Part shown: positions 1-44,333 of the stretch, piece after piece
Numbering within the stretch: the first letter of the stretch is position 1
Layout: the number at the start of each line of letters is the position of its first letter
Assembly (NCBI GenBank): GCA_965645245.1
Contig: OZ287078.1
Location: 682,001-746,000 of the forward strand
Direction of reading: 5' to 3'
Length of the DNA stretch: 64,000 nucleotides
Source of the DNA: Massalongia carnosa
Taxonomy: Eukaryota
Position numbers and translations under genes: made by a program
The notes under the pieces: model-generated
What the model was told of the DNA's origin: nothing
The model's database searches: none
The model's input: the letters and a program-made list of their open reading frames with translations, nothing else

Positions 1-751
1 GGCTTCCGCGCAAGCTTGGCCACGTTTGTCACCAGCGCCGTCTGGCACGGTTTCTACCCCGGCTATTATCTCTCCTTCGTCCTCGCCGCTTTCTTGCAAA
101 CAGTCGCCAAAAGTACATCCCTCTAGACCGTCTCATGATCCACTCCATACACGTGCTAACCATGAATGACCCTGAGCCCTAGATTTCCGCCGCCATGTGC
201 GCCCCTTCTTCCTCACCCCCGACGGCCAGAACCCTACACAGTACAAAGTCTACTACGACATCCTCTCCTACATCACCACGCAACTGGCGTTCTGCTTCAC
301 CACTGCGCCCTTCGTGCTGCTCGCCCTGCCCGCTTCCCTGCTCGTTTGGTCGCGTGTCTACTTCTATGCCGTGCTCGGCACCGCCGCCTCCATGGCTCTG
401 TTCGCCTCCCCCGTCAGATCCTACCTCACCCACAAACTCAAGGCGAGGAATACCGCTCGTCCCGCGGTAGTGATGCAACAGCGAGCGAACGCTGCTGCTG
501 CTGCTGCTGCTACTACGGCGATGGAGGCCAACGCGCCAAACGAACGGTATGCAATGCACGTGGATATAGACGAGCATCCACTCATGGGCCTACCGAGCGA
601 CCCAGGCCGGGACGTGGAGGAAGCGGTAAGAGAGATTCGGGAAGAGGTTGAAGCACGAAGGCGGAAAGGTGGTGGTGGTAATGCGGTGAAGGTGCCCACG
701 GGCGCGGAGCTCAAGGCTGCGGTCGAGGAGCGGCTGGGGAAATCGCTATGA
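1..751 (+). CDS. ALE1: MBOAT-family lysophospholipid acyltransferase, 3' part (5' end outside window); intron 113-182
   Basis: Frame 1 reads GFRASLATFVTSAVWHGFYPGYYLSF (MBOAT catalytic WHG motif); splices at gtacat..ctag into FRRHVRPFFL...; stop TGA 749-751; (GCT)n poly-Ala near 491-511. Confidence 0.9.
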
Positions 752-1341
752 GGGAGGCGGCGGGATGTCGATGTCGGTGGTCAATTTCCACAAAAGCACG
801 CGCGGGATGAATGAATCGATGGATAGATAGCATGAGCGAGCGATGAAATCTGTCTGCCTTTCTGCCTGCCTGCCCGCCTATCTATCTATCTACTTATTGA
901 TCAGGGGGGGGGGGGTGGGGGGGGTGGAACAAAAAGAACTCCCTTGGCCCGCTTTGTACTCCAGAAGCCAGCCAGCCATCCAGACAGATGAAGAAGAGCC
1001 TAACCAACCAACCAACTAACCAGGCCTGCCTGCCTGCCTGCAGCGGGATAAGGTTCCGCACATGTACCTAGATAGAATAGTATAGCATAGCATAGAACAG
1101 AACTTGTTTTCGCATCAATCTGGAGCAATGTGAGGACAATAGTTACTTGCTGTATCAAGTGGAACCCGGAGGAACGTCGTTATTTATGCATGTATGTATG
1201 TACATTATCCACTCACCCACCCACCCAATCCTAACCAACCAACTAGATGCATATTCCTATAGATTTATATCTTTAAAGCTTCTCTACCTCCCCTGCCTTA
1301 CCAACCTGTACCACGGTTGTGTATGTATCTATATATGTATG

Positions 1342-32965: not shown

Positions 32966-35828
32966 ATGACGGACTATGACAGAAGGAATGGTTCAGCGCG
33001 AGGAGGTTATAATAATCGCAAGCGGAGGTTTCGAGGTAACAACCTAGGCGCTTCCTTCTTTTACACGCTAATCTTGCTCAATAGATGAAGATGACTATGA
33101 CCGTCGCCCGCAGCGCAGACGATATGAGGAGCCATTAGGTGTGAAAGTACGGAAGCAGCTTCTTGCTATTGCTGAGTCGGTATAAATTCACGTCCGAAGA
33201 GTCGTCAGTTCTAATATGCTAATGCTGGAACAGCCGCTAAAGAGAACGGACGACGAAATCGCCAGCATCGCCAAAATAGTTGCTGAGAGCTATGACAATG
33301 ACGAACTTCGAAACACATTTGTGGATCTATTGTTGCAACTGTTGGTTCATTCCTGCCTGCTATGGCCTCGATTATCACTAACGATGCATCAGTGTGGTTG
33401 AGCAGCCTTTTAAGATTCCCTTTGCCGCCGCTATTATAATAGTTGTAAACCCTCAAAACTCAAAACCTACCCAAGAAATTATAGCAAGAGCGGCCGCGGC
33501 TTTGCAAAAATACCTATACAATGGGGCTTGGCGTGAGGTCAAGCTGCTGCTACGATTCTTGGGCTGCTTGCAAGGAGTTTTGGAGGGTGATGGCGTGTTT
33601 CCCATCTTGGAGGAGTTATTCTCACGAGCAGTTGACTTACAGACTGCTTCATCTGAAGACGTAAGTTTCGCGTTCACAAAGTGTGTACAATGCTAACCTT
33701 TCTACTATTAGAGCTTAGGATTAGAGCTTGTAAAGATCATTCTACTTACGATTCCTTATGTAATGGCTTCCTCCGCGACGGACTTTGAAGAGCACGCCAA
33801 TGTCCTACTGGACAAGACAGATATCATTGCTTCAACACCTCATGCTCTTGAAGCTCTAGTGGATCCTTATCCAGGAAACGGGGAAGATACTGCACACGAA
33901 CCGCAAAGCATTATTGGCCTCTTACAAAAGCAGCTACAAGGCGAGGCTAGCAACTCTTGGGAGTTGGCATGTATTCCTCGTGCATGGAAGTTACCCGAGG
34001 CCGGAGATGGAGTGGATAACCCAATGGTTAATTTAAAGCATGCCTTACCGCCGCTTACTGTCCCTTCCCCGGCGTCGCCAGGCTCTCGCCCTCGATTGCC
34101 AGAGATTTATTTTTCTGTGTACGCGGACCAAGACATTGAGACGGTACCATCGACCGCTAATGTAGCATCTTCTATATTGCGAGATTCCCTTGTTGATACT
34201 ATCAACATACTTGACTTCAATCGAAATGCAACAGCCAGGTTTCTGATCGATCTAGATTGTTACTTCTCACCTGACACTTTTGTGAAAAGGGCTACGCCTT
34301 TTGACCGCTTACGAGACGTTGAGGGTAACCGATCAACATGGAAACCAGAAGATGTTGCAGTGGACGCGGTGTTCTCTCAGCTTCTACAGCTGCCCGCGCC
34401 AGAGCATAAGCTGGTGTATTATCATTCCGTACTCACCGAGGCTTGCAAGATTGCACCGGCAGCAATAGCACCAAGTCTAGGTCGGGCAATCCGCTACCTA
34501 TACAAAAACGTCGATGTTATGGACCTTGAACTAGAATATAGATTTATGGATTGGTTCTCGCATCATTTGAGCAACTTTGGTTTCACCTGGAAATGGACCG
34601 AATGGTAACTTCCGTCAAGCGCGCTAATTGCGTCCATCGCTGATTATTCATAGGGTTGATGACGTGGAGCTACCATTAGTACATCCCAAAAAAGCTTTTA
34701 TGGTGGGGGCCTTGGAGAAAGAGATTCGCCTTAGTTTTGCCCAAAGAATACGAGGGACTCTTCCGGAGCCTTACCAACCCCTAATCTCCAAAGCCAAAGA
34801 AGAAGATACGCCCAGCTTCAAATACAACTCCGACCGTAAGCTTTTGCAGAATCCATCGACTTTGCGAAGCATGATGACTAACAAATTGCCGTTCAGAAAC
34901 CCCCTATGCGCCTGCAGCCCTCGAGATTCTCCGTCTCCTCCGGACCAAAGCTCCTGACTCCGAAATCCTTATTCACCTTACGGCTATCGAAACCGAAGCT
35001 GCTGCCTTGGGAGTTGGTGACCCACTCGTCCCATCCACAGACGCCTATGTAACCTCCATCTGCTACATTGGATCCAAATCACTATCCCATGTACTCTCCT
35101 GCATTGAGCGCTGTAAAGAGCGCCTTCTGGCCATCGGCCCTCAATCAGAGTCCGCTAGGCGCCAGATAATCACTTCGGTGATGGAGTACTGGCGTGAGAA
35201 ACCGGGCGTCGGCGTGAACGTCGTAGACAAGCTCCTGAACTACACCATCCTCACCCCCATAAGTGTCATCACCTGGGCACTTGTTGACCACATTGGCAAG
35301 GGAGAGAGCCTTACCCACGCACACGTCTACGAGATGGTCGCATCAACGATGCACAAGGTTACTAACCGTGTACGGCAGATCGTGCTGGCACGCAATCAAC
35401 GCGAGCTGCCAATTGTGCAGGTGGCTCTGCTGGACGAGACACTCGCAAAGGAGCGAAGGGATATGGAGCAGTTGTTTGCCGTTGTTGAGGACGCTCTGGT
35501 GGGAGTGGCGACCGGGGTGGTGGACGAGATGGCGGAGTCGGCGGACCAGGATGGGAGTGGGGCGGCGCTGTTGAGAGCTTGGGGTGGGCGATGGTTAAGG
35601 GTGTTTAGGCGAAAGATAGCGATTGAGGAGGCGTGGGTAGGAGAAATGCTGCTGCTGATTGAGGGGGGCCAAGATGGTCTTGATGGGGTCGACGATCAGG
35701 GCGATGGAGATGGTGATGATGATGAAGTGGCAATGGACGGGATAGCGAACGGGGGGCACGGCAACTTGAGCGGAATTGCTAATGGACTTGATATCATGGG
35801 CCAGGAGGGCGAGGACGAGATGCTGTGA
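32966..35828 (+). CDS. CBP80: Nuclear cap-binding complex large subunit (Cbp80/Sto1/NCBP1), multi-exon
   Basis: N-terminal NLS-like NRKRRFR; VEQPFKIPF; FMDWFSHHLSNFGFTWKWTEW; EIRLSFAQRIRGTLP; IGSKSLSHVLS. Confidence 0.92.
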
Positions 35829-36040
35829 GTTGCGAGATGGTTCGCCCTTGGGAGGGAGGGCCGAGTTTTTCTTTGGTGTTCCGTGTGGCTTGTAAAGCTA
35901 CGGTTTGCGGGAATTCGGTTCATGTATGTTCATTTCATCGTAGGGGGAGGTTACCTATCTGTGTGTTTATCTACGGTAGCTAGCTCTCTAGCTACCTATT
36001 ACGGATCTTGCACTACCGCATCGTGGCGCTGCGGTTAGGG

Positions 36041-36105
36041 GTGGTGGTAGTGGTGGTGGTGGTGGTGGTGGTGGTGTTGTGGTTGGTAGTGGTAGTGATA
36101 GTGGT
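36041..36105. repeat. (GTG)n microsatellite, degenerate at the right end
   Basis: gtggtggtagtggtggtggtggtggtggtggtggtg... Confidence 0.85.
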
Positions 36106-36440
36106 ACAGAGTAGTGGCAAACAATTCTCTAGACAGACGGAACGGGACGTGGAAGGAGGGGGGGAGATATTGGGGGAGATGCGATGTCAGCTACCTACAT
36201 ACACATAGATCTATGTACATAGTTACCCACGCACCTTCCTGTCAAGTTTAATGCTGCATTGTCGGGTATGCATATAGGTAGATACTCTGTATGTTGTGTA
36301 AATATGTAGGTAGTGATTGTGTACCGACGTAGGTACTCCGTACCGACGTACCCCATGTATGAATGCCAAGCTCTGTATGTCTGACAGGTTGCCAGGGGGT
36401 TTTTTGAGGGGAGGTTTAGCGGCTTGGCTGGTACGTCCAT

Positions 36441-37081
36441 TTTATTATTATTATTAATTCATTAAGCGTATGCATCCTAAGGATATGACGCTGTGACTGC
36501 TATTTATGTACATAAACAACAGTCAGGAAGTGGAAACCTGGCCCCCAGGGTAAAACCACTCCCTTGTTCCATGTTGAACGCAACGAGACCGTCCTTCTAC
36601 CACGCGGTGCATACACCCAGATCTTCAAGCGCTAGGAATCCTATAGACTCGATGAACTAGACAGTGTATTTTCACACGTTCGACGAACGTTCTCTCTCTT
36701 TAAACGTTTTGATTCAATGGAGGAAAGACTGGCCGTGATCGAGGGCAGATCGTGGTGTCGTATAAATGAAGGTGTGTAAGTGTGGCCATTCTAAATGAAT
36801 GGGCTTTTTCGATGTGGTGAAAGGCTTCCGCCTGAGGGGTGTGGCCATTCCGAATGAATGGGCTTTTTTGATGAGGTGAAAGGCTTCCGCCTGAGGGGTG
36901 TGGCCATTCCGAATGAATGGGCTTTGTATGCGTGCCTTCGAGGTGACGAATGATCAGTAGAGACGTTGATCGTTCAAATGGCCACCGAGGTGGACTTCCG
37001 CGTTGGCGATGATCAGATATTGGCCACCTCCGAGGAGGTGTTGATAGCCTGCACCACGTAGAGGTTTCTGACCCAGCAGGC
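36441..37081 (-). mobile_element. Non-autonomous non-LTR retroposon (SINE/SIDE-like), 641 bp, with 13-bp TSD and (TAA)n tail
   Basis: Direct repeat CTGGTACGTCCAT at 36428-36440 and 37082-37094; minus-strand 3' end ...gcttaatgaattaataataataataaa; three 3' hairpins; no ORF of 60 aa or more in the track. Confidence 0.85.
36780..36925. repeat. 59-bp tandem repeat, about 2.5 copies, inside the retroposon
   Basis: Units start at 36780, 36839, 36898: gtgtggccattccgaatgaatgggcttttttgatgaggtgaaaggcttccgcctgaggg. Confidence 0.92.
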
Positions 37082-37082
37082 C
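37011..37082 (-). ncRNA. HDV-like self-cleaving ribozyme fold at the 5' end of the retroposon
   Basis: GGCCUGC UG GGUCAGA A ACC UCUACGU GGU GCAGGCU AU CAA CACCUC CUCG GAGGUG G C CAA UA UCUGAUC = P1 (7 bp, G1-U wobble), P2, P3 with 7-nt L3, CAA, P4, catalytic-C-like position at 37023. Confidence 0.8.
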
Positions 37083-37320
37083 TGGTACGTCCATGCTAGC
37101 ATGAAGAGCCCTACCAGCCAATCGGTCAGCCTCAGCAAGCCAGTTCAGTTAGTCAGTCAGTCATCAGCAAAGTCGAGTCATGGATTGGTTGGTATGCATT
37201 GATTGGATTAGATTGGACTATTTGATTGATTGGTTGACTGGTTTACGGAAAGTGATTGGTTAACTGAGTTAAACCGATTAGCCGGTTGAGATAATTGATA
37301 GATTGATTGATTACTCTGTA

Positions 37321-38800
37321 CGGAGGATGACACAAAAAGTCTTTGGATGCGCTAAGAATGGCACTAAGGATTTAGCGCTGCATCAATGCCCCTTTTCCAT
37401 ATTTGATTTATCATCTTTATTTTTCACATCAACCTCATTTTCAAACGATATAATGCATTGAAAATCAGGTCTATATGCAGACTTATGACATGATTAGTCT
37501 ACATCACTGCTATCAGATATAATGTCTTTGCGATAGCGAATGCGACGATCTTCGGAATTATATGGCCGGACCACACCATTGTCTCGACCCTCTCGATACT
37601 CGTTTCCTCCATTCAAAGCGATGACTTCTTCTATATGTCGTGGAATTCGTTCTATCCATTGCTGAATTTTTTTTTGTTTCAGAGTTTTTGTCCAGCACCG
37701 AGTCCATGCTTTGATAGCCGTAATGCGATTTCGAGGTGCTCCTTTTCGTGTGGTTTGCCTTTTCATCCAAGGCCAACATTGCTCGATCATGTTCAAATCA
37801 GGAGAATTACCTGGCCACAATAAACGCAAGACTTCTGCATCCATAAAGACCAGGTCTTGATGTTTGGAAGCATGACCAGGGGCCTTGTCCTCCTGCACAA
37901 TAGTATCGGGACGATCTTTTATACATTCTTTTGCAAACGGAAGAAGTTTGGGAAGAAGAATAGTTTTTTGATAACGATACCAGTCGCTGCCCCCTTTGCC
38001 TTTTCGAGCCACTTTTCCATGCTTTTCATCCCATTTCCAGACCGGTTTTCGACCTCCTTCGGTACGCAGTCCCATTCGTTTCATGCCTATTTCCAATTCC
38101 CAATTTTCTTTCGCTAGAGGCTCCAATGCCTTATTGATTTGTCGATTTCTCCTTGAGCGGCATGTTTTTCTGCCGCTGTCTCCGGCTTCCATATATGAAA
38201 AGGACCTTTCTTTTCATACGAAAAACAACCCCAAAACATGAATTCGGAACATCCTTTCCATCTACGTCGAATGCACGTTTGAGCATATCTTTCTTTTGGA
38301 GTTCGCCACTAGAGTCTTCGTCCTCTTCGAGAGCCTAATACAACACTAGTTTCATCGCTCCATATGACATTCTTCCAGTCATCGAGAGTCCAATGACGAT
38401 AACGCAAACAGAATTGCAATCGAGCCTCTTTCATTGCTGAATCAAGGCCTGGTTTCATGGTAGATTTGCAGGGACGAAAGTTATTGCGTCGAAGAATATT
38501 GAGAATAGTTGTAGATGAGACTCCGTGCTCATATCCCAAAACGGCTGAGGATTTTTCTCTATCATTTCGATCATGACGAACGTTGTCTAAAATGGCCTGT
38601 TCTAGCTCAGACGTCACTTTAGGAGGACGTCCTGAACGACATGCATCTTCTACGTATTCTACATTCAATATTCGCGAAACAGTGGGATCATATCTTCGAT
38701 CTCGTGCCTTGCGCTTGATATAACTGATAGACTGAGTTGAGACTCCGGTGACTGCTTGAACGACTTTGACTGCTATGCCCCAACTGACAGACACAAGGAT
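37321..38800 (-). mobile_element. Tc1-like (DD34E) DNA transposon, 5'-truncated, with pseudogenized transposase
   Basis: SGRPPK, WKNVIWSDET, VQEDKAPGH, WPGNSPDLNMIEQCW (34 aa between D and E); in-frame TAG at 38309-38311 and a 1-nt frameshift near 38140; putative terminus TA|CGGAGGATGACACAAAAAG at 37321; matching TIR not found. Confidence 0.85.
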
Positions 38801-38806
38801 TAGCTA

Positions 38807-40185
38807 CAGGGGGGGAGGGGGGGGGGGCGGAAGAAGCGGGAAGATAGAAAGTGGGGAAAAGATACTTTATTTTGTTAGCAATTTGCGTACAATTTTATGT
38901 ATCTCCTACTCTACTAGCTAGGTGTTTATCCAAGCTCTCGTCGCATCACCAAATATCGTTTGACTCGCCGGTCTTTTCGATGATGACATGGACGTATCAG
39001 ATAAAGAGATCTCTTCTTGTAGTAGTCTATCCTCCATCTCACAAAGATCCGTCTCATTGATGTCGATGCTAGCAAACTGAAGCTTGCTTTTGAAATCTGT
39101 TGGCCGATTAAGAGTACGCTCATTCATGTAAATAAACATGAGTTTATCGACATTGATGGAATGTAGAGAGTTCCGACTTTTGGTCATGATCAAATTCATG
39201 ACCGACCAATTTCTTTCTGCCAGCACCGAATTAGCAGGCAGCATTATTACCTTTCTAGCTATGTTGCTGAGATCAAAAGCAAAGCTTCTGGAAAAGTTCC
39301 AAAACAGCTCCGAATCCGTTTGATATGTCCAGCATTCGGAGGCAGGATAAAAACCGTCTTCTTGATTTCGAAAAGAAAGCCATTGCTTCATTGCCGACTT
39401 TGCTTCTTCAACGTTCAGATATTCAGCAAAGAATCTATGCATGATAGAGAAAAATGCCTGCGACGTGGATACTCCAATCACCTGAATGTTATGATTCTGA
39501 GGAACCAACAGAGCTGCTACCACATGAAGTTCAGTTATTTGACTGAGATATCGATCTTCCCAAACTATCTCTGCAATGTGATGCAAATCCATCTCAGAAT
39601 CTTCATCCTCTTTGGCCATTGTATATAGGTGAGATCGAAGCCTGTTCCAATTGGCAGTCACCGCGTACAGTTTATGCCCCTCGGCCTCGGACATGTATTG
39701 TGCTTTATGTATGGGATCAAGAATTTTCTGTACGATGGCCAGCTTTTTCCAAAACGAGAAGTCGTTGACGAATGTTCCTAAAGGATGACTTCTGCCCTGA
39801 TCAATGCCCGGAGCATTTTGCTGAAAATAATCCAAAATTGCCTGCTTGCTTTTTAGCACCGAGTTCAAAAGGCCTACAGTCGTACCCCATCTGGTCAAAA
39901 CGTTGAGAATCAGTGATTGACGTTGATTGTATGCCTTTGAAAGTTATAAATTAGCAATGAAGTTTTGATGCCGCATTGAAATTTCATTCCTACTTACCTT
40001 CATCTGAAAATTCCATAGAATGGCCAATTCTTTATTCGATCCACGAAAAGCTACCACTATCGACTGAGCTTTTTGCATGATGTCTGCAAAAAAAGGAAGC
40101 TTCAAAATGTCTCCCAAAAGAAGCTGTAAACCGTGACTGTCGAAAAAGACGTGTCTCATCTCAGGAAACTTTCGAATTTCAGACC
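38807..40185 (-). mobile_element. hAT-superfamily transposon fragment (3' half of transposase, intron 39935-39997)
   Basis: HVFF-DSHGLQLLLGDIL; FQMK|AYNQRQSLILNVLTRWGTT; C-terminal dimerization-like MLPANSVLAERNWSVMNLIMTKSRNSL..DKLMFIYMN; stop 38918; G-rich CAGGGG.. putative terminus at 38807. Confidence 0.85.
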
Positions 40186-42200: not shown

Positions 42201-42433
42201 GTTTGGGAGAAGATTGATGAGCGAAAGTTCGCAAACGAGAAGGGAAAAGAAAACACCGCCGTCTTACTCTATATCGTTCACCTTTCTATTCTTCCTCATC
42301 TGACAGTAAGCTCTAAATTCTAGTCACACCCGAACAGGCTTAGCTCAGCATCCCGATGCGTGCTAATTGTGCTTTACCTCAGTACCTCAGACATGTCTAA
42401 GCCCCTCAGGGTTAGCCTATTTTGTTAAGCTCC

Positions 42434-43760
42434 CACGCGGGTGACAAAATAAATTGCAACGTGTAAGCGAATTTACCCCTGAATGCCCCATCAAAACACC
42501 CTCCTTTTTTTCAACTTTTTATCTCATCATCAATGTCTCGACCCAAAAAGCCTCATTATGATACTCCCACAAAGGCCAAAGTTCAAGGAGCTTATCAATT
42601 TCTCATCTCACATGCAATTCCATTCGATCCACGGGCCATTTTTCAGGAATTTGGCGTGGCCGAGCGCGCGGGCTATAACATCATCAAAAGCGGAGCTTCT
42701 TCTCGCACACGTCACAATTCTTCTCTCGTTGAGACTCGGGGTCGAAAGCGAAATATTAGTGATGATCAGCTGAAGGAGGCAGATCAAATTCTACAGGATC
42801 AAGAGCTACAATTGGAAGGAAAACGCTACACATGGGATGCTTTAGCACAGGAGATTGGGGCCGACGTGATGGGACGTACAATGAAGAGAACTCTTACAGC
42901 TGCCTTGAATTATCACAAATGTCTAGCCTGTGTCAAAGGGTGGCTGGCAATGGCATCAGAAGAAAGAAGAGAAGAATTTGCTACAGTTATGTTAAATAAA
43001 TATCCTCGGTTCGAAGACTGGCATCGCGTACGATTCAGCGATGAGATTCATTTTGGCTACGGGCCTGAAGGACAGTTACGAATCATTCGTAAGCCCGGAA
43101 CAAGATATCGTTGGGATTGTATTCAGCATCGTGATGCACCACCTGAGAAAGATCGTAAAAGAAAGCACTGCTGGGCAGCAGTTGGTTACAATTTCAAGTC
43201 GGATATCTACTTCTACGATGTGCCCAGCAATAGCAATGGAAAAATGACTCATCAGGTGTATATTGACGCTATTCTTGATCCCGTTGTCAAGCCCTGGTTG
43301 GAGCGTGGAGATGACTTCGTACTTGAAGAAGATGGAGACTCTGGTCATGGCACGGGCAAGACACGAAACGCGGTCAAAAAGTGGAAGTTAGATCACGATT
43401 TAGAGCACTATTTCAATTGTGCTTCATCTCCTGATCTAGCCTCCATTGAAAATTGCTGGCAGCCCGCAAAGCAGCATGTTCGTAAATTTCCTCATTGGGA
43501 CGATGCAAGTTTGGAGCAGCTGATTAGGGAGGGATGGGCTCGAGTCAGTCAGGAATTTATCAATGAAAGGGTGTTATCCATGCCCAAAAGATTGAAAGAG
43601 GTAAAAGATGCAAAGGGGGCGATGACTGGTTATTGATCTCATGTAATTTATATGAATTTTATTAGCTATGCAGATGATGGTTGATGATGAGATGAAAATT
43701 TGAATAAAAAAGGGGGGGTAAATTCGCTTACACGTTGCAATTTATTTTGTCACCCGCGTG
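42434..43760 (+). mobile_element. Intact IS630-Tc1-mariner-type DNA transposon, 1327 bp, perfect 46-bp TIRs, non-TA flanking direct repeat
   Basis: TIR cacgcgggtgacaaaataaattgcaacgtgtaagcgaatttacccc at 42434-42479 and inverted at 43715-43760; GCTCC at 42429-42433 and 43761-43765. Confidence 0.93.
42533..43636 (+). CDS. Tc1-like DDE transposase, 367 aa, uninterrupted
   Basis: RGRKR; VRFSDEIHF; LEEDGDSGH; SSPDLASIENCW (38 aa between second D and E by manual count). Confidence 0.92.
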   Translation: MSRPKKPHYDTPTKAKVQGAYQFLISHAIPFDPRAIFQEFGVAERAGYNIIKSGASSRTRHNSSLVETRGRKRNISDDQLKEADQILQDQELQLEGKRYTWDALAQEIGADVMGRTMKRTLTAALNYHKCLACVKGWLAMASEERREEFATVMLNKYPRFEDWHRVRFSDEIHFGYGPEGQLRIIRKPGTRYRWDCIQHRDAPPEKDRKRKHCWAAVGYNFKSDIYFYDVPSNSNGKMTHQVYIDAILDPVVKPWLERGDDFVLEEDGDSGHGTGKTRNAVKKWKLDHDLEHYFNCASSPDLASIENCWQPAKQHVRKFPHWDDASLEQLIREGWARVSQEFINERVLSMPKRLKEVKDAKGAMTGY

Positions 43761-44333
43761 GCTCCTTCTGATTAGCGTCCCAGCTGACTAACGATAGCAC
43801 AAAAGCCCGCATAGTCAGCCTTAGCCGGCACGTCCGAGGTACTGAGACAAATTATGCTAAACCACTTTGGGAAGGAACCGGCATGCTGGTGGACTCAACG
43901 TCCTTCGTTCAACTTCCCCTATGAACATGCAGAGTACAGCTCTCAATGCTCTCGAAGCTCTAGATGTTCGCTTCACCTGCCAGGAGGTCAAAACTCAGTA
44001 GATCCATGATAGTGATAATTTTGATTACCTAATAACCTTTTAAATAGCTACTCGTATCAAGAACTAACCATAACTCAATCCTGTCTACATTTGTTGTACC
44101 ATAGAGCTGGTGGAAATATTGATATGGTATACAGTAAAGACTGGCTGTCGTGAAGTCTGATGTGCGCACGCTAAACAGGCGTAAAACCAAGTGACCACCC
44201 TTCACCCACCTGTTATCCAGTCGGGGGTTTTTTCTCTAAACCATAAACACCCCTTTCCCACGTACCCGGCCTGTGAATACCTGAACAGCATCCTGGCCGA
44301 CTGATATCGAAGAGATTTGCACGCCAATGACTG

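Follow-up and report, generated by a model that had tools for sequence, protein, structure and literature searches.

In Drosophila, R2 SIDEs, along with R2/R1 hybrid SIDEs, have been described as short, ORF-less elements with a 5′-terminal HDV-like ribozyme and the 3′ end of a LINE, which insert by target-primed reverse transcription (TPRT) in trans, the R1-type ones with 14-bp duplications (Eickbush and Eickbush, 2012, PMC3414825). In trypanosomatids, L1Tc, NARTc and SIDER are dispersed autonomous and non-autonomous non-LTR elements that bear the Pr77 hallmark; their first ~77 nt are reported to form an HDV-like ribozyme by which the RNA of the element is released from co-transcripts, and the elements often lie in 3′ UTRs (PMC3185411, PMC3383444, PMC4035085), and in L1Tc one 77-nt stretch is described as serving as promoter and ribozyme alike (PMC3383444). 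That fungi have HDV-type ribozymes is not in itself new: 230 examples from 26 ascomycete species have been reported to show “widely variable gene associations” and to cleave in vitro (Li and Breaker, 2017, PMC5640933); 11 fungal examples came, according to the same paper, from Webb 2009, and its main text contains 0 occurrences of the word stem “retrotranspos”. Theta ribozymes, as described, belong to phages, are linked to tRNAs (within ~5 nt of the phage tRNA) and have no P4 (PMC10879173).

The locus described here is an ORF-less insert at 36441–37082, minus strand, of the window, by which we mean the whole 64,000-nucleotide stretch of DNA that was analysed. Like the R2 SIDEs as published, it is short, lacks an ORF and has an HDV-like ribozyme at its 5′ end; unlike them (fixed rDNA sites, rare, co-transcribed with rRNA), it occupies varying sites, is present in high copy and has a fungal host (PMC3414825). 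Instead of the 28S rDNA site and R2 origin that define R2 SIDEs, we found three copies in three targets, and no rRNA match in the window. It is also dispersed and headed by an HDV-like ribozyme as L1Tc, NARTc and SIDER are, but in the trypanosomatid accounts Pr77 is an internal promoter as well, transcription is polycistronic and the lineage is another; the likeness drawn here is one of architecture. By analogy, the window element may have an internal promoter. The kind of element is thus already known from R2 SIDEs and NARTc/SIDER, and what is new is this element, in a fungus. The sequence-only reading knew of no described fungal family with this architecture, and a literature search, whose scope lay outside Ruminski 2011, Webb 2009 and Webb and Luptak 2011, likewise found none.

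We consider the insert, with a probability of about 80%, to be a high-copy non-autonomous non-LTR (TPRT) retroposon of an ascomycete-like fungus from lichen samples, whose 5′ end is produced by ribozyme cleavage. It is built of three modules: a 5′-terminal 72-nt HDV-like ribozyme, a non-coding body with variable 59-nt repeats, and a 3′ domain of three hairpins that leads into a (UAA)n tail. The features, all on the minus strand and in the direction of the element, are as follows.

37082 to 37094, minus strand: upstream (5′) copy of the target-site duplication (exact 13-mer repeat; 37082/37083 is also where the contigs of other copies cease to align)
37011 to 37082, minus strand: HDV-like ribozyme, 72 nt, predicted to cut 5′ of 37082
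37082–37076 with 37052–37046, minus strand: predicted helix P1, 7 bp, with G1.U37 (sequence and alignment)
37073–37067 with 37017–37011, minus strand: predicted helix P2, 7 bp (sequence and alignment)
37065–37063 with 37055–37053, minus strand: predicted helix P3, 3 bp (sequence and alignment)
37062–37056, minus strand: loop L3, 7 nt (sequence)
37045–37044, minus strand: J1/4, AU (sequence)
37039–37026, minus strand: predicted helix P4, 5 bp plus a closing C-G pair (sequence and alignment)
37023, minus strand: presumed catalytic C in J4/2 (homology)
36581 to 37010, minus strand: non-coding body with a 59-bp tandem repeat, ~2.5 units at 36780–36925 and a degenerate third unit to 36956
36465 to 36564, minus strand: structured 3′ domain, with predicted hairpins at 36564–36525, 36524–36495 and 36492–36465
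36441 to 36464, minus strand: A/U-rich unstructured tail ending (TAA)n A (sequence, tandem-repeat call and folding)
36428 to 36440, minus strand: downstream (3′) copy of the target-site duplication (13-mer repeat; an X1 contig, record 2, spans flank and tail with 0 differences)

The perfect 13-bp direct repeats that had been reported around this minus-strand insert were confirmed: the 13-mer CTGGTACGTCCAT has exactly two exact occurrences in the window, at 36428–36440 and 37082–37094, and at no more than one mismatch 0.06 matches are expected, with at least three found in 0 of 100 shuffles. Since G1 (37082) is both the last base of the repeat and the first base of the ribozyme, we refined the duplication to 12 bp plus one ambiguous G, which makes the insert 641 or 642 bp long. 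Between the repeats, the insert has TTAATGAATTAATAATAATAATAAA at its end when read on the minus strand, and Tandem Repeats Finder called (TTA)5 at 36442–36456, which bears out the (TAA)n terminus. The neighbouring ORFs are rich in DNA transposons (DDE_3, HTH_Tnp_Tc3_2 and hAT), with a Tc1/mariner transposase ORF ~410 nt upstream of this copy in the same orientation, and a third match to CTGGTACGTCCAT, with one mismatch, lies in inverted orientation (12/13) at 38988–39000, minus strand. Such surroundings might suggest that the insert is a MITE or other DNA transposon, or else a duplicated segment with a chance 13-bp flanking repeat, but we regard this as scarcely credible: no terminal inverted repeats were found on the insert, which has a simple-repeat tail, and the duplications at other copies differ in sequence and length (11–14 bp). 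The inverted match was discarded as a transposon end and attributed to chance, as the similarity does not extend beyond it and it lies within a hAT-like ORF.

At the other end of the element, the first 72 nt are predicted to form a nested double pseudoknot of HDV type, as had been proposed, with the helices in canonical order, P3 adjoining the 3′ strand of P1, and all pairs of P1 (7/7), P2 (7/7) and P3 (3/3) formed; sub-threshold Rfam matches, a structural descriptor and covariation all agree with this fold. Both Rfam HDV models aligned end to end at 37009–37084, RF02682 with 26.0 bits (gathering threshold 44; model positions 1–74 of 74) and RF00094 with 22.9 bits (gathering threshold 50; model positions 1–89 of 89), and no Rfam family reached its gathering score anywhere in the window. 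The E-value of the RF02682 match was 0.016 over 4227 families in a 951-nt search, or ~4e-6 for RF02682 alone by our own arithmetic, and 1.1 on the scale of the whole window and all families. P2 is an additional 7-bp pseudoknot helix that lies outside the covariance model, with a chance of ~1e-3 per register by a hand estimate. A strict descriptor, drafted after the candidate was already known, matched one site in the 128 kb of window strands, namely the ribozyme at 37082, and none in 40 dinucleotide shuffles; it replaced a looser HDV descriptor whose 59 plus-strand and 44 minus-strand matches in the window were uninformative. The minimum free energy (MFE) fold of 75 nt taken for the ribozyme alone was not unusual (z = -1.68; 13 of 200 shuffles as good), pseudoknots being outside the MFE model.

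A scan of the metagenome for the ribozyme core yielded 43 loci, of which the 28 with AU before CAAC (24 distinct sequences) had an HDV-like fold and the 15 without AU had none. The core ACC-UCUACGU-GGU ... AUCAAC ... GGCYAA is identical between the window and these environmental ribozymes. When the window sequence was aligned with 21 same-core ribozymes, 94.2% of cells paired, as against 27–40% with slid partners, and compensatory changes were seen at 6/7 pairs of P1, 7/7 of P2 and 5/6 of P4. The relatives had been retrieved with a pattern derived from the candidate and the 21 rows chosen using P1, so only the covariation of P2 and P4 is unbiased. On this comparative evidence, the predicted fold of the window belongs to a covarying group of ribozymes. 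Among nine same-core loci scanned, six matched RF02682 with 28.9–43.6 bits, all below 44, so that falling short of the threshold is usual in this group. The GGC in alignment columns 70–72 was invariant in 22/22 rows, and its C in the window, at 37023, is presumed to be the catalytic cytosine. For P1.1, in HDV-like ribozymes a helix of two base pairs between L3 and J1/4, a single A-U pair can be drawn; the AU of J1/4 is common to the 21 aligned relatives, but was also a criterion for their selection.

With respect to described types, the window ribozyme has an extra nucleotide between P2 and P3 (A at 37066), as do the fungal variants of Li and Breaker, but those variants are described as marked out by C-G pairing at the cut site and by loop E replacing part of P4, where the window ribozyme pairs G.U and its 5-bp P4 is a plain tetraloop hairpin; the ribozyme is set apart from them by the published description (PMC5640933) rather than by alignment. 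Its best Rfam match is the drz-Fpra type (RF02682). This type and theta are, as described, prokaryotic or phage RNA-processing signals, whereas the window ribozyme heads a eukaryotic retroposon; it also has a P4, and ARAGORN found no tRNA gene in the window, which places it outside the theta ribozymes (PMC10879173).

The expectation that the element would occur in multiple copies was borne out in public sequencing runs. In run X1, from which 2592 contigs aligned, the unique flank had a depth of 857–879, while the six bins lying wholly in the element summed to 400,309–627,918, or ~460–720 times the single-copy flank; depths summed over contigs do not equal real copy numbers, and the contigs also cover a repeated transposase stretch. 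Copies of the element thus number roughly in the hundreds in an ascomycete-like fungus from lichen samples, and the family might make up perhaps several hundred kb of one genome (~600 copy-equivalents × 642 bp, a crude estimate). The contig comparison leaves aside runs X9–X20, which hold small shares. Copies from runs labelled as different organisms were ~99% identical, which, if ribozyme-headed retroposons form the general class conjectured below, would reflect either activity in the very recent past or spread among lichen-associated fungi.

The copies had been expected to start at GGCCTGC and to carry different duplications, and both were observed. Loose contig ends pile up at 36440/36451 and, in 13 contigs, at 37082, and agreement with the flank is low at these ends (0.43–0.63), and the alignments of other copies end at 37082/37083, so that the 5′ boundary of the element coincides with the predicted cut site at G1. 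At the other end, contigs of other copies begin to align at 36440–36453, and tail length is therefore variable. Three copies were resolved at both ends: that of the window, with a duplication of 12–13 bp; one in X4, with CTATTGTGAATA (plus-strand spelling; 12–14 bp); and one in X5, with GCCGATGTAAT (plus-strand spelling; 11–12 bp). These are three different target sequences. In all three the base after the downstream duplication is G, meaning that G1 could be derived from the target and not from the RNA. No contig joined across the insert; X4, X5 and X8 have a depth of only 2–5, so that their absent cover of the flanks at 35400–36400 says nothing about an empty site. Dispersed copies, duplications of unlike sequence and length and a variable simple-repeat tail are the marks of a TPRT retroposon.

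One X1 contig joins 37083 to 36453, a head-to-tail tandem of two units, at a depth (828.7) corresponding to a single copy. Such a joint would be expected of a retrozyme-like circular RNA, in which tandems are cut at two ribozymes and the resulting 5′-OH and 2′,3′-cyclic phosphate ends are ligated, but it was the only one among the 15 joints listed out of 33, dispersed single copies with duplications predominate, and each unit has one ribozyme and no LTR-like repeats. We therefore think it very improbable that the element spreads in this way, and favour a retroposon that inserts by TPRT.

Between its two ends, the element varies. Tandem Repeats Finder called a 59-bp unit, 2.5 times, at 36780–36925; the X4 and X5 copies are without one such unit (36816–36874), and several X1 contigs have other internal deletions. 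The 3′ domain, by comparison with shuffled sequence, is strongly structured: 36441–36580 folds with an MFE of -46.6 kcal/mol (z = -4.76), equalled by 0 of 200 shuffles, and a palindrome (I5) lies within the domain at 36494–36525. The stretch 36480–36572 was free of variants among the 40 best-supported variants listed, as were both it and the ribozyme among the 25 in-element variants listed. We presume, from the modelled fold, that the three-hairpin domain may be the recognition site of a reverse transcriptase.

That the two ends are the least variable parts among the variants listed would fit an internally deleted autonomous LINE, similar to a SIDE, that kept its own 5′ ribozyme and 3′ UTR, as opposed to a chimera with an independently acquired ribozyme. 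R2 SIDEs are reported to have arisen by such deletion (PMC3414825), and NARTc likewise from L1Tc (PMC3383444). Against this, no LINE with this head or tail was found, a scan of the metagenome contigs for the tail-hairpin pattern gave 0 loci, the window contains neither a reverse transcriptase ORF nor a LINE, nor a second copy of the element, and element depth is equal at the 5′ and 3′ ends, without the extra depth at the 3′ domain to be expected from a LINE sharing the tail and present in many copies. We hold derivation from a LINE to be a serious candidate, at somewhat less than even odds; it concerns origin only, and is compatible with a ribozyme-headed retroposon that moves by TPRT.

The window element does not stand alone among the environmental loci. 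In L003, the 16 nt directly before the ribozyme G1 are found again 665 nt downstream, where they follow immediately on a (TCA)n tail. Outside the ribozyme, L003 and the window element show no relationship, with identity in 267 of 643 aligned columns. Judged by its sequence, this 665-nt element, with a 16-bp duplication abutting the first base of the ribozyme, is an independent replicate of the same build. A faint tRNA-like stretch lies just 3′ of the L003 ribozyme (tRNA-Sec model, 18.3 bits, E = 1.3). No convincing target duplications or tails were found at six further ribozyme loci with GC ~0.5 (L001, L012, L027, L028, L040 and L041). The L009 family (13 loci) was rejected as a ribozyme-headed repeat, as its upstream sequence is also conserved and the ribozyme is not at the repeat boundary.

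The insert had been described as having no ORF and no obvious tRNA-type B box, and both descriptions hold: the longest ATG ORF overlapping it is of 46 aa and starts in the flank, and the sole B-box-like match within it has two mismatches and is located inside the ribozyme, such matches being at chance frequency across the window (162, against 161.6 expected). An Rfam search of 36300–37250 gave no tRNA, 5S or 7SL match at E ≤ 10, so that neither ARAGORN, Rfam nor the B-box scan detected a Pol III-type head, a feature that would have spoken against the sequence-only reading. A SINE in the strict sense has a tRNA, 5S, 7SL or snRNA head and an internal Pol III promoter, and the element lies outside that definition. 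These results also bear on the view that the ribozyme-like fold is inactive or incidental and that transcription from an internal Pol II or Pol III promoter, of the sort found in ordinary SINEs or in the Pr77 of L1Tc, fixes the uniform 5′ end. The ribozyme is known from predicted structure, its Rfam scores are sub-threshold, P1.1 is weak and L003 has its tRNA-like stretch, all of which lend that view some weight. We nonetheless judge it unlikely, given the lack of Pol III-type matches, the full HDV architecture in register with covarying relatives, the descriptor result in window and shuffles, and the fact that two unrelated elements, that of the window and L003, both start where their ribozymes are predicted to cut.

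On the reading that we prefer, a ribozyme-headed retroposon, a copy would owe its transcription to an adjacent gene or transposon whose transcript reads through into it, the element probably having no promoter of its own. The ribozyme, which its structure suggests would self-cleave, would then cut 5′ of G1 and remove the host sequence, so that each RNA template is proposed to begin GGCCUGC. The reverse transcriptase and endonuclease, presumably those of a LINE, would bind the 3′ domain and tail and prime cDNA synthesis at a staggered nick; the footprint observed is one of 11–14-bp target duplications and a 5′ junction at G1. LINEs of the I-factor and Tad1 types have (TAA)n 3′ ends and target duplications in the low teens of bp. 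The window element resembles them in its trinucleotide (TAA)n tail and low-teens duplications; a relation to them is a guess, and the mobilising enzyme may have been Tad1-like. The interpretation first offered for the insert is thus supported overall, with its anatomy, its many copies, their differing duplications and their uniform 5′ end at the predicted cut site all observed.

If correct, this adds fungi to the animals and trypanosomatids in which retrotransposition is ribozyme-defined. We suggest, more tentatively than for the element itself and as a conjecture that could well fail, that promoter-less short retroposons headed by a ribozyme form a general and as yet undescribed class in fungi and other microbial eukaryotes, in which the module that sets the 5′ end is an HDV-like ribozyme in place of a Pol III head. 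Such a class would explain the varied gene associations of the hundreds of fungal HDV-type ribozymes in the catalogue, and offers a testable account of their scatter. The element would also provide a rule for annotation, by which a repeat whose 5′ end is the G1 of an HDV-like ribozyme counts as a retroposon even where a Pol III head is lacking. Since every copy brings with it a predicted self-cleaving RNA, host transcripts with a copy in a 3′ UTR or intron could be cut, as has been proposed for the SIDERs of Leishmania (PMC4035085). The ribozyme core of the window is letter for letter that of phage and bacterial ribozymes, which raises the question of convergence versus common descent. Several of the same-core environmental ribozymes (L002, L014, L031, L037 and L042) adjoin tRNA genes in tRNA arrays.

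The retroposon that the sequence-only reading had picked out was confirmed as an observation, and its parts were placed as follows.

36441–37082, minus strand: element, 642 nt between two exact 13-mer copies
37094–37082 and 36440–36428, minus strand: 13-mer direct repeat, exact, ATGGACGTACCAG in element sense
36442–36456, plus strand: (TTA)5 (Tandem Repeats Finder)
36780–36925: 59-bp unit, 2.5 copies (Tandem Repeats Finder)

A search of the window for the 13-mer at up to one mismatch returned the two exact copies and one 12/13 match, with 0.06 matches expected and three matches reached in 0 of 100 shuffles. The element's 3′ terminus reads TTAATGAATTAATAATAATAATAAA, and its last 140 nt were predicted to form three hairpins and, beyond them, an unpaired tail (MFE −46.6 kcal/mol, z = −4.76; equalled in 0 of 200 shuffles). 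The repeat search and Tandem Repeats Finder thus bore out the claim of an insert flanked by 13-bp direct repeats and ending in a simple-repeat tail, and the further claims that it lacks an ORF and a tRNA-type B box also held: the longest ATG ORF overlapping it encodes 46 aa and starts in the flank, while its sole B-box-like site carries two mismatches and lies within the ribozyme, such sites being at chance level window-wide (162 vs. 161.6 expected). ARAGORN found no tRNA in the whole window, and tRNA, 5S, 7SL and snRNA were absent among the four matches of a permissive Rfam scan of 36300–37250, so that no Pol III-type head was recognised in the element. Separately, the 12/13 match is an inverted copy of the duplication word at 38988–39000 (minus strand), within a hAT-like ORF; similarity stops there, and we judged it to be due to chance.

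The 5′ end of the element could be folded as an HDV-like ribozyme, numbered here from G1 = 37082.

P1, 1–7 with 31–37: GGCCUGC with GCAGGCU, including G1·U37
P2, 10–16 with 66–72: GGUCAGA with UCUGAUC
P3, 18–20 with 28–30: ACC with GGU
L3, 21–27: UCUACGU
P4, 43–58: 5-bp hairpin and tetraloop, closed by C43-G58
J4/2, from 59: GCCAA, in which C60 (37023) is predicted to occupy the place of the catalytic cytosine

At gathering thresholds, Rfam gave no match in the window. In permissive mode, both HDV models aligned over their full length, RF02682 at 37011–37081 (model 1–74 of 74; 26.0 bits vs. a threshold of 44) and RF00094 at 37009–37084 (model 1–89 of 89; 22.9 bits vs. a threshold of 50). When the search space is the entire window with all 4227 families, the RF02682 match has E = 1.1, and its score is therefore unconvincing by itself. 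The P2 pseudoknot, which the covariance model does not see, pairs at 7/7 positions. Our own HDV descriptor, built from generic HDV constraints but composed after the candidate was known, had 37082 (minus) as its sole match on the two window strands and no match in 40 dinucleotide shuffles; a looser first descriptor, which matched 103 window sites, was discarded as uninformative. P1.1 is limited to a single A-U pair, which is the weak point of the ribozyme assignment.

Scanning metagenome contigs for the core pattern ACCTCTACGTGGT-N9-CAAC-N(10-40)-GGCNAA yielded 43 loci, 28 of which (24 distinct sequences) carry AT before CAAC, like the window; these have a P1 of 6–7 bp, a P2 of 6–8 bp and a P4. 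The remaining 15 lack both the AT and a ribozyme fold, and several of these, judged by their common letters, may be coding sequence for an NLYVVD-type repeat. Of the 24 distinct AT-bearing sequences, 21 were aligned to the window sequence; L022, L035 and L039 were left out because they have no 6/7 P1 within 24 nt upstream. Standard pairs occurred in 94.2% of 501 cells, compared with 27–40% pairing when partners were slid by 1–3 columns, and compensatory changes were present at 6/7 pairs of P1, 7/7 of P2 and 5/6 of P4. Because P1 was used to choose rows and the pattern fixed the core, this covariation is unbiased for P2 and P4 only; P3 is invariant since the search pattern fixed it. The window ribozyme pairs fully in register with these relatives, which, together with the descriptor and the full-length, below-threshold Rfam alignments, upheld the claim that the first 72 nt form an HDV-like fold. 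Among nine same-core loci scanned, six gave an RF02682 match, each below threshold (28.9–43.6 bits), indicating that a below-threshold score is usual for this subgroup.

By sequence, the nearest ribozymes are those of the RF02682 type and tRNA-adjacent ones in environmental tRNA arrays. At L002, L014, L031/L032, L037 and L042, full-size, P4-bearing HDV-like ribozymes with the window's core lie directly 3′ of tRNA genes in dense tRNA arrays, and at L002 the end of tRNA-Leu coincides with the start of P1 (6982). In setting these resemble phage theta ribozymes, and they have a P4, unlike minimal theta (PMC10879173). Another single ribozyme family occupies thirteen AT-rich loci (GC 0.24–0.31; L009, L010, L018, L019, L024–L026, L030, L033, L036, L038, L039, L043), preceded by a conserved T-run/A-run leader and located away from any repeat boundary; hAT and Transposase_21 domains are among those encoded nearby, which points to a probably eukaryotic host. 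On the minus strand of L022 (parts at 229–285 and 1058–1241), a eukaryotic 28S rRNA match (76.4 bits) is followed ~770 nt downstream by the same ribozyme core without a nearby P1; this core may belong to an element inserted in rDNA whose ribozyme has a large J1/2.

One same-core locus, L003 (a 1172-nt metagenome contig, GC 0.49; RF02682 38.7 bits), holds a second ribozyme-headed, ORF-less retroposon.

About 42–707 of 1–1172, minus strand: L003 element, ~665 nt

Here the 16 nt CCCTGTACCTAAAACA directly precede G1 and recur 665 nt downstream, right after a (TCA)n tail, with no ATG ORF of at least 80 aa following the ribozyme. Outside the ribozyme the two elements are not alignable (267/643 columns identical), and just 3′ of its ribozyme L003 has a faint tRNA-like stretch (tRNA-Sec model, 18.3 bits, E = 1.3). 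In common with the window element, it has a trinucleotide-repeat tail, no ORF in ATG-ORF scans and a perfect duplication abutting the predicted cleavage site. The sharing of four features by two unrelated elements is difficult to account for if the ribozyme does not generate the 5′ end.

The window contains one copy of the element. A k-mer index of public sequencing runs returned 20 rows from 13 studies with all or part of it; eight of these rows, from 6 studies, contain at least half of its words. The source is probably among these 6 studies, and one row is labelled lichen metagenome. We compared contigs of four runs (X1, X4, X5 and X8) with 35400–38100 at 80% likeness. X1 probably represents the source organism, its flanks being identical to the window. 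In this run, where unique sequence has a depth of 857–879, the six bins wholly within the element reached a summed depth of 400,309–627,918, about 460–720 times the flank, which is readable only as hundreds of copy-equivalents and not as a copy number. Depth does not fall from the 3′ end towards the 5′ end, which suggests that the majority of copies are full length. Alignments stopped at 37082 in 13 X1 contigs, one X5 contig and two X8 contigs, and at 37083 in X4; breaks on the tail side fell at 36440–36453, and the sequence beyond the breaks differed from contig to contig (agreement 0.43–0.63). Two copies beyond the window had both ends resolved, one on a 7074-nt X4 contig flanked by CTATTGTGAATA and one on a 2051-nt X5 contig flanked by GCCGATGTAAT (both in plus-strand spelling). 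Each lacks one 59-bp unit, and a comparison with the window copy over ~580 aligned bases shows 4 changed letters in X4 and 5 changed letters plus one gap in X5. Depth, contig breaks and these two copies agree with the prediction of many copies with unlike duplications, all starting GGCCTGC.

In all three resolved copies a G also follows the downstream duplication, so G1 is formally common to element and target. Microhomology of 1 nt is common at the 5′ junctions of target-primed insertions, and the shared G1 looks like such a case. Of the best-supported 40 of 96 differences, 25 lay within the element; none of these 40 fell in 36995–37082 (the ribozyme and 16 nt) or 36480–36572 (the 3′ hairpins), an absence that may partly reflect the tool ignoring differences close to contig ends. 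Across 36441–38100 in X1, most of the 59 places that differ among copies are transitions (12 C>T, 16 G>A, 12 A>G, 10 T>C), which could be ordinary decay or RIP-like mutation. One X1 contig of single-copy depth joins 36453 to 37083, the 5′ end of one unit onto another's tail, and represents two units standing in tandem, head to tail, at some genomic site. The X4 and X5 copies, from runs with other organism labels, are ~99% identical to the window copy, with unique flanks uncovered and a depth of only 2–5; this fungus or a close one, present at low abundance, could account for them, as could recent spread.

HDV-like ribozymes are established at the 5′ ends of R2, L1Tc, RTE and baggins (PMC6765202), and likewise head some non-autonomous non-LTR derivatives, namely R2 SIDEs (PMC3414825), which are closest in design to the window element, and NARTc and SIDER (PMC4035085), which are the closest dispersed cases. 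Li and Breaker reported 230 HDV-class ribozymes in 26 fungal species, active in vitro and with "widely variable gene associations"; their main text makes no mention of retrotransposons (PMC5640933). Their fungal variant has a C-G pair at the cut site and loop E as its hallmarks (PMC5640933), whereas the window ribozyme has G·U and lacks loop E. This kind of element is therefore already known, and it is the fungal kingdom that is new for it: in agreement with the sequence-only reading, our literature search, conducted outside the key Luptak-lab work, found no description of a fungal or lichen ribozyme-headed retroposon.

We propose that the element would be transcribed from outside, as no promoter was recognised in it, an internal promoter being a possible alternative. 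Judging from the structure and the 5′-end positions, the ribozyme would then cleave itself 5′ of G1, such that only element RNA is copied; a LINE-encoded protein would recognise the 3′ hairpins and (UAA)n tail, and target-primed reverse transcription would proceed at a staggered nick. The 11–14-bp duplications, variable tail and variable internal repeat number are the footprint of this last step. Where testable, the initial interpretation was supported; cleavage, outside transcription and LINE mobilisation we infer.

The surroundings of the element include the following.

Ends 35828, plus strand: cap-binding-complex-like gene (MIF4G_like, MIF4G_like_2)
37494–38803, minus strand: Tc1/mariner-type ORFs (DDE_3, HTH_Tnp_Tc3_2), upstream of the element in the same orientation
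38918–39943: hAT fragment

In the Atlas, the clusters closest to the cap-binding-like protein come mostly from Ascomycota. Of the 56 listed ORFs of at least 150 aa, 45 were scanned, and none of these encodes a recognisable reverse transcriptase. A (GGT)n-type microsatellite (36033–36105), at which X1 contigs break, separates the cap-binding-like gene from the element, and the Tc1/mariner-like region 37311–38100 is also repeated in X1 (summed depth 28,000–107,000 vs. ~870 for unique sequence). Sub-threshold miRNA-family matches at 1312–1387 (mir-297, 44.2 bits vs. a threshold of 90) are probably a simple-repeat hairpin. Lastly, a compact 1.33-kb element at 42433–43761, with perfect 47-bp terminal inverted repeats around a 389-aa DDE_3 ORF, looks like an intact Tc1/mariner-type transposon.
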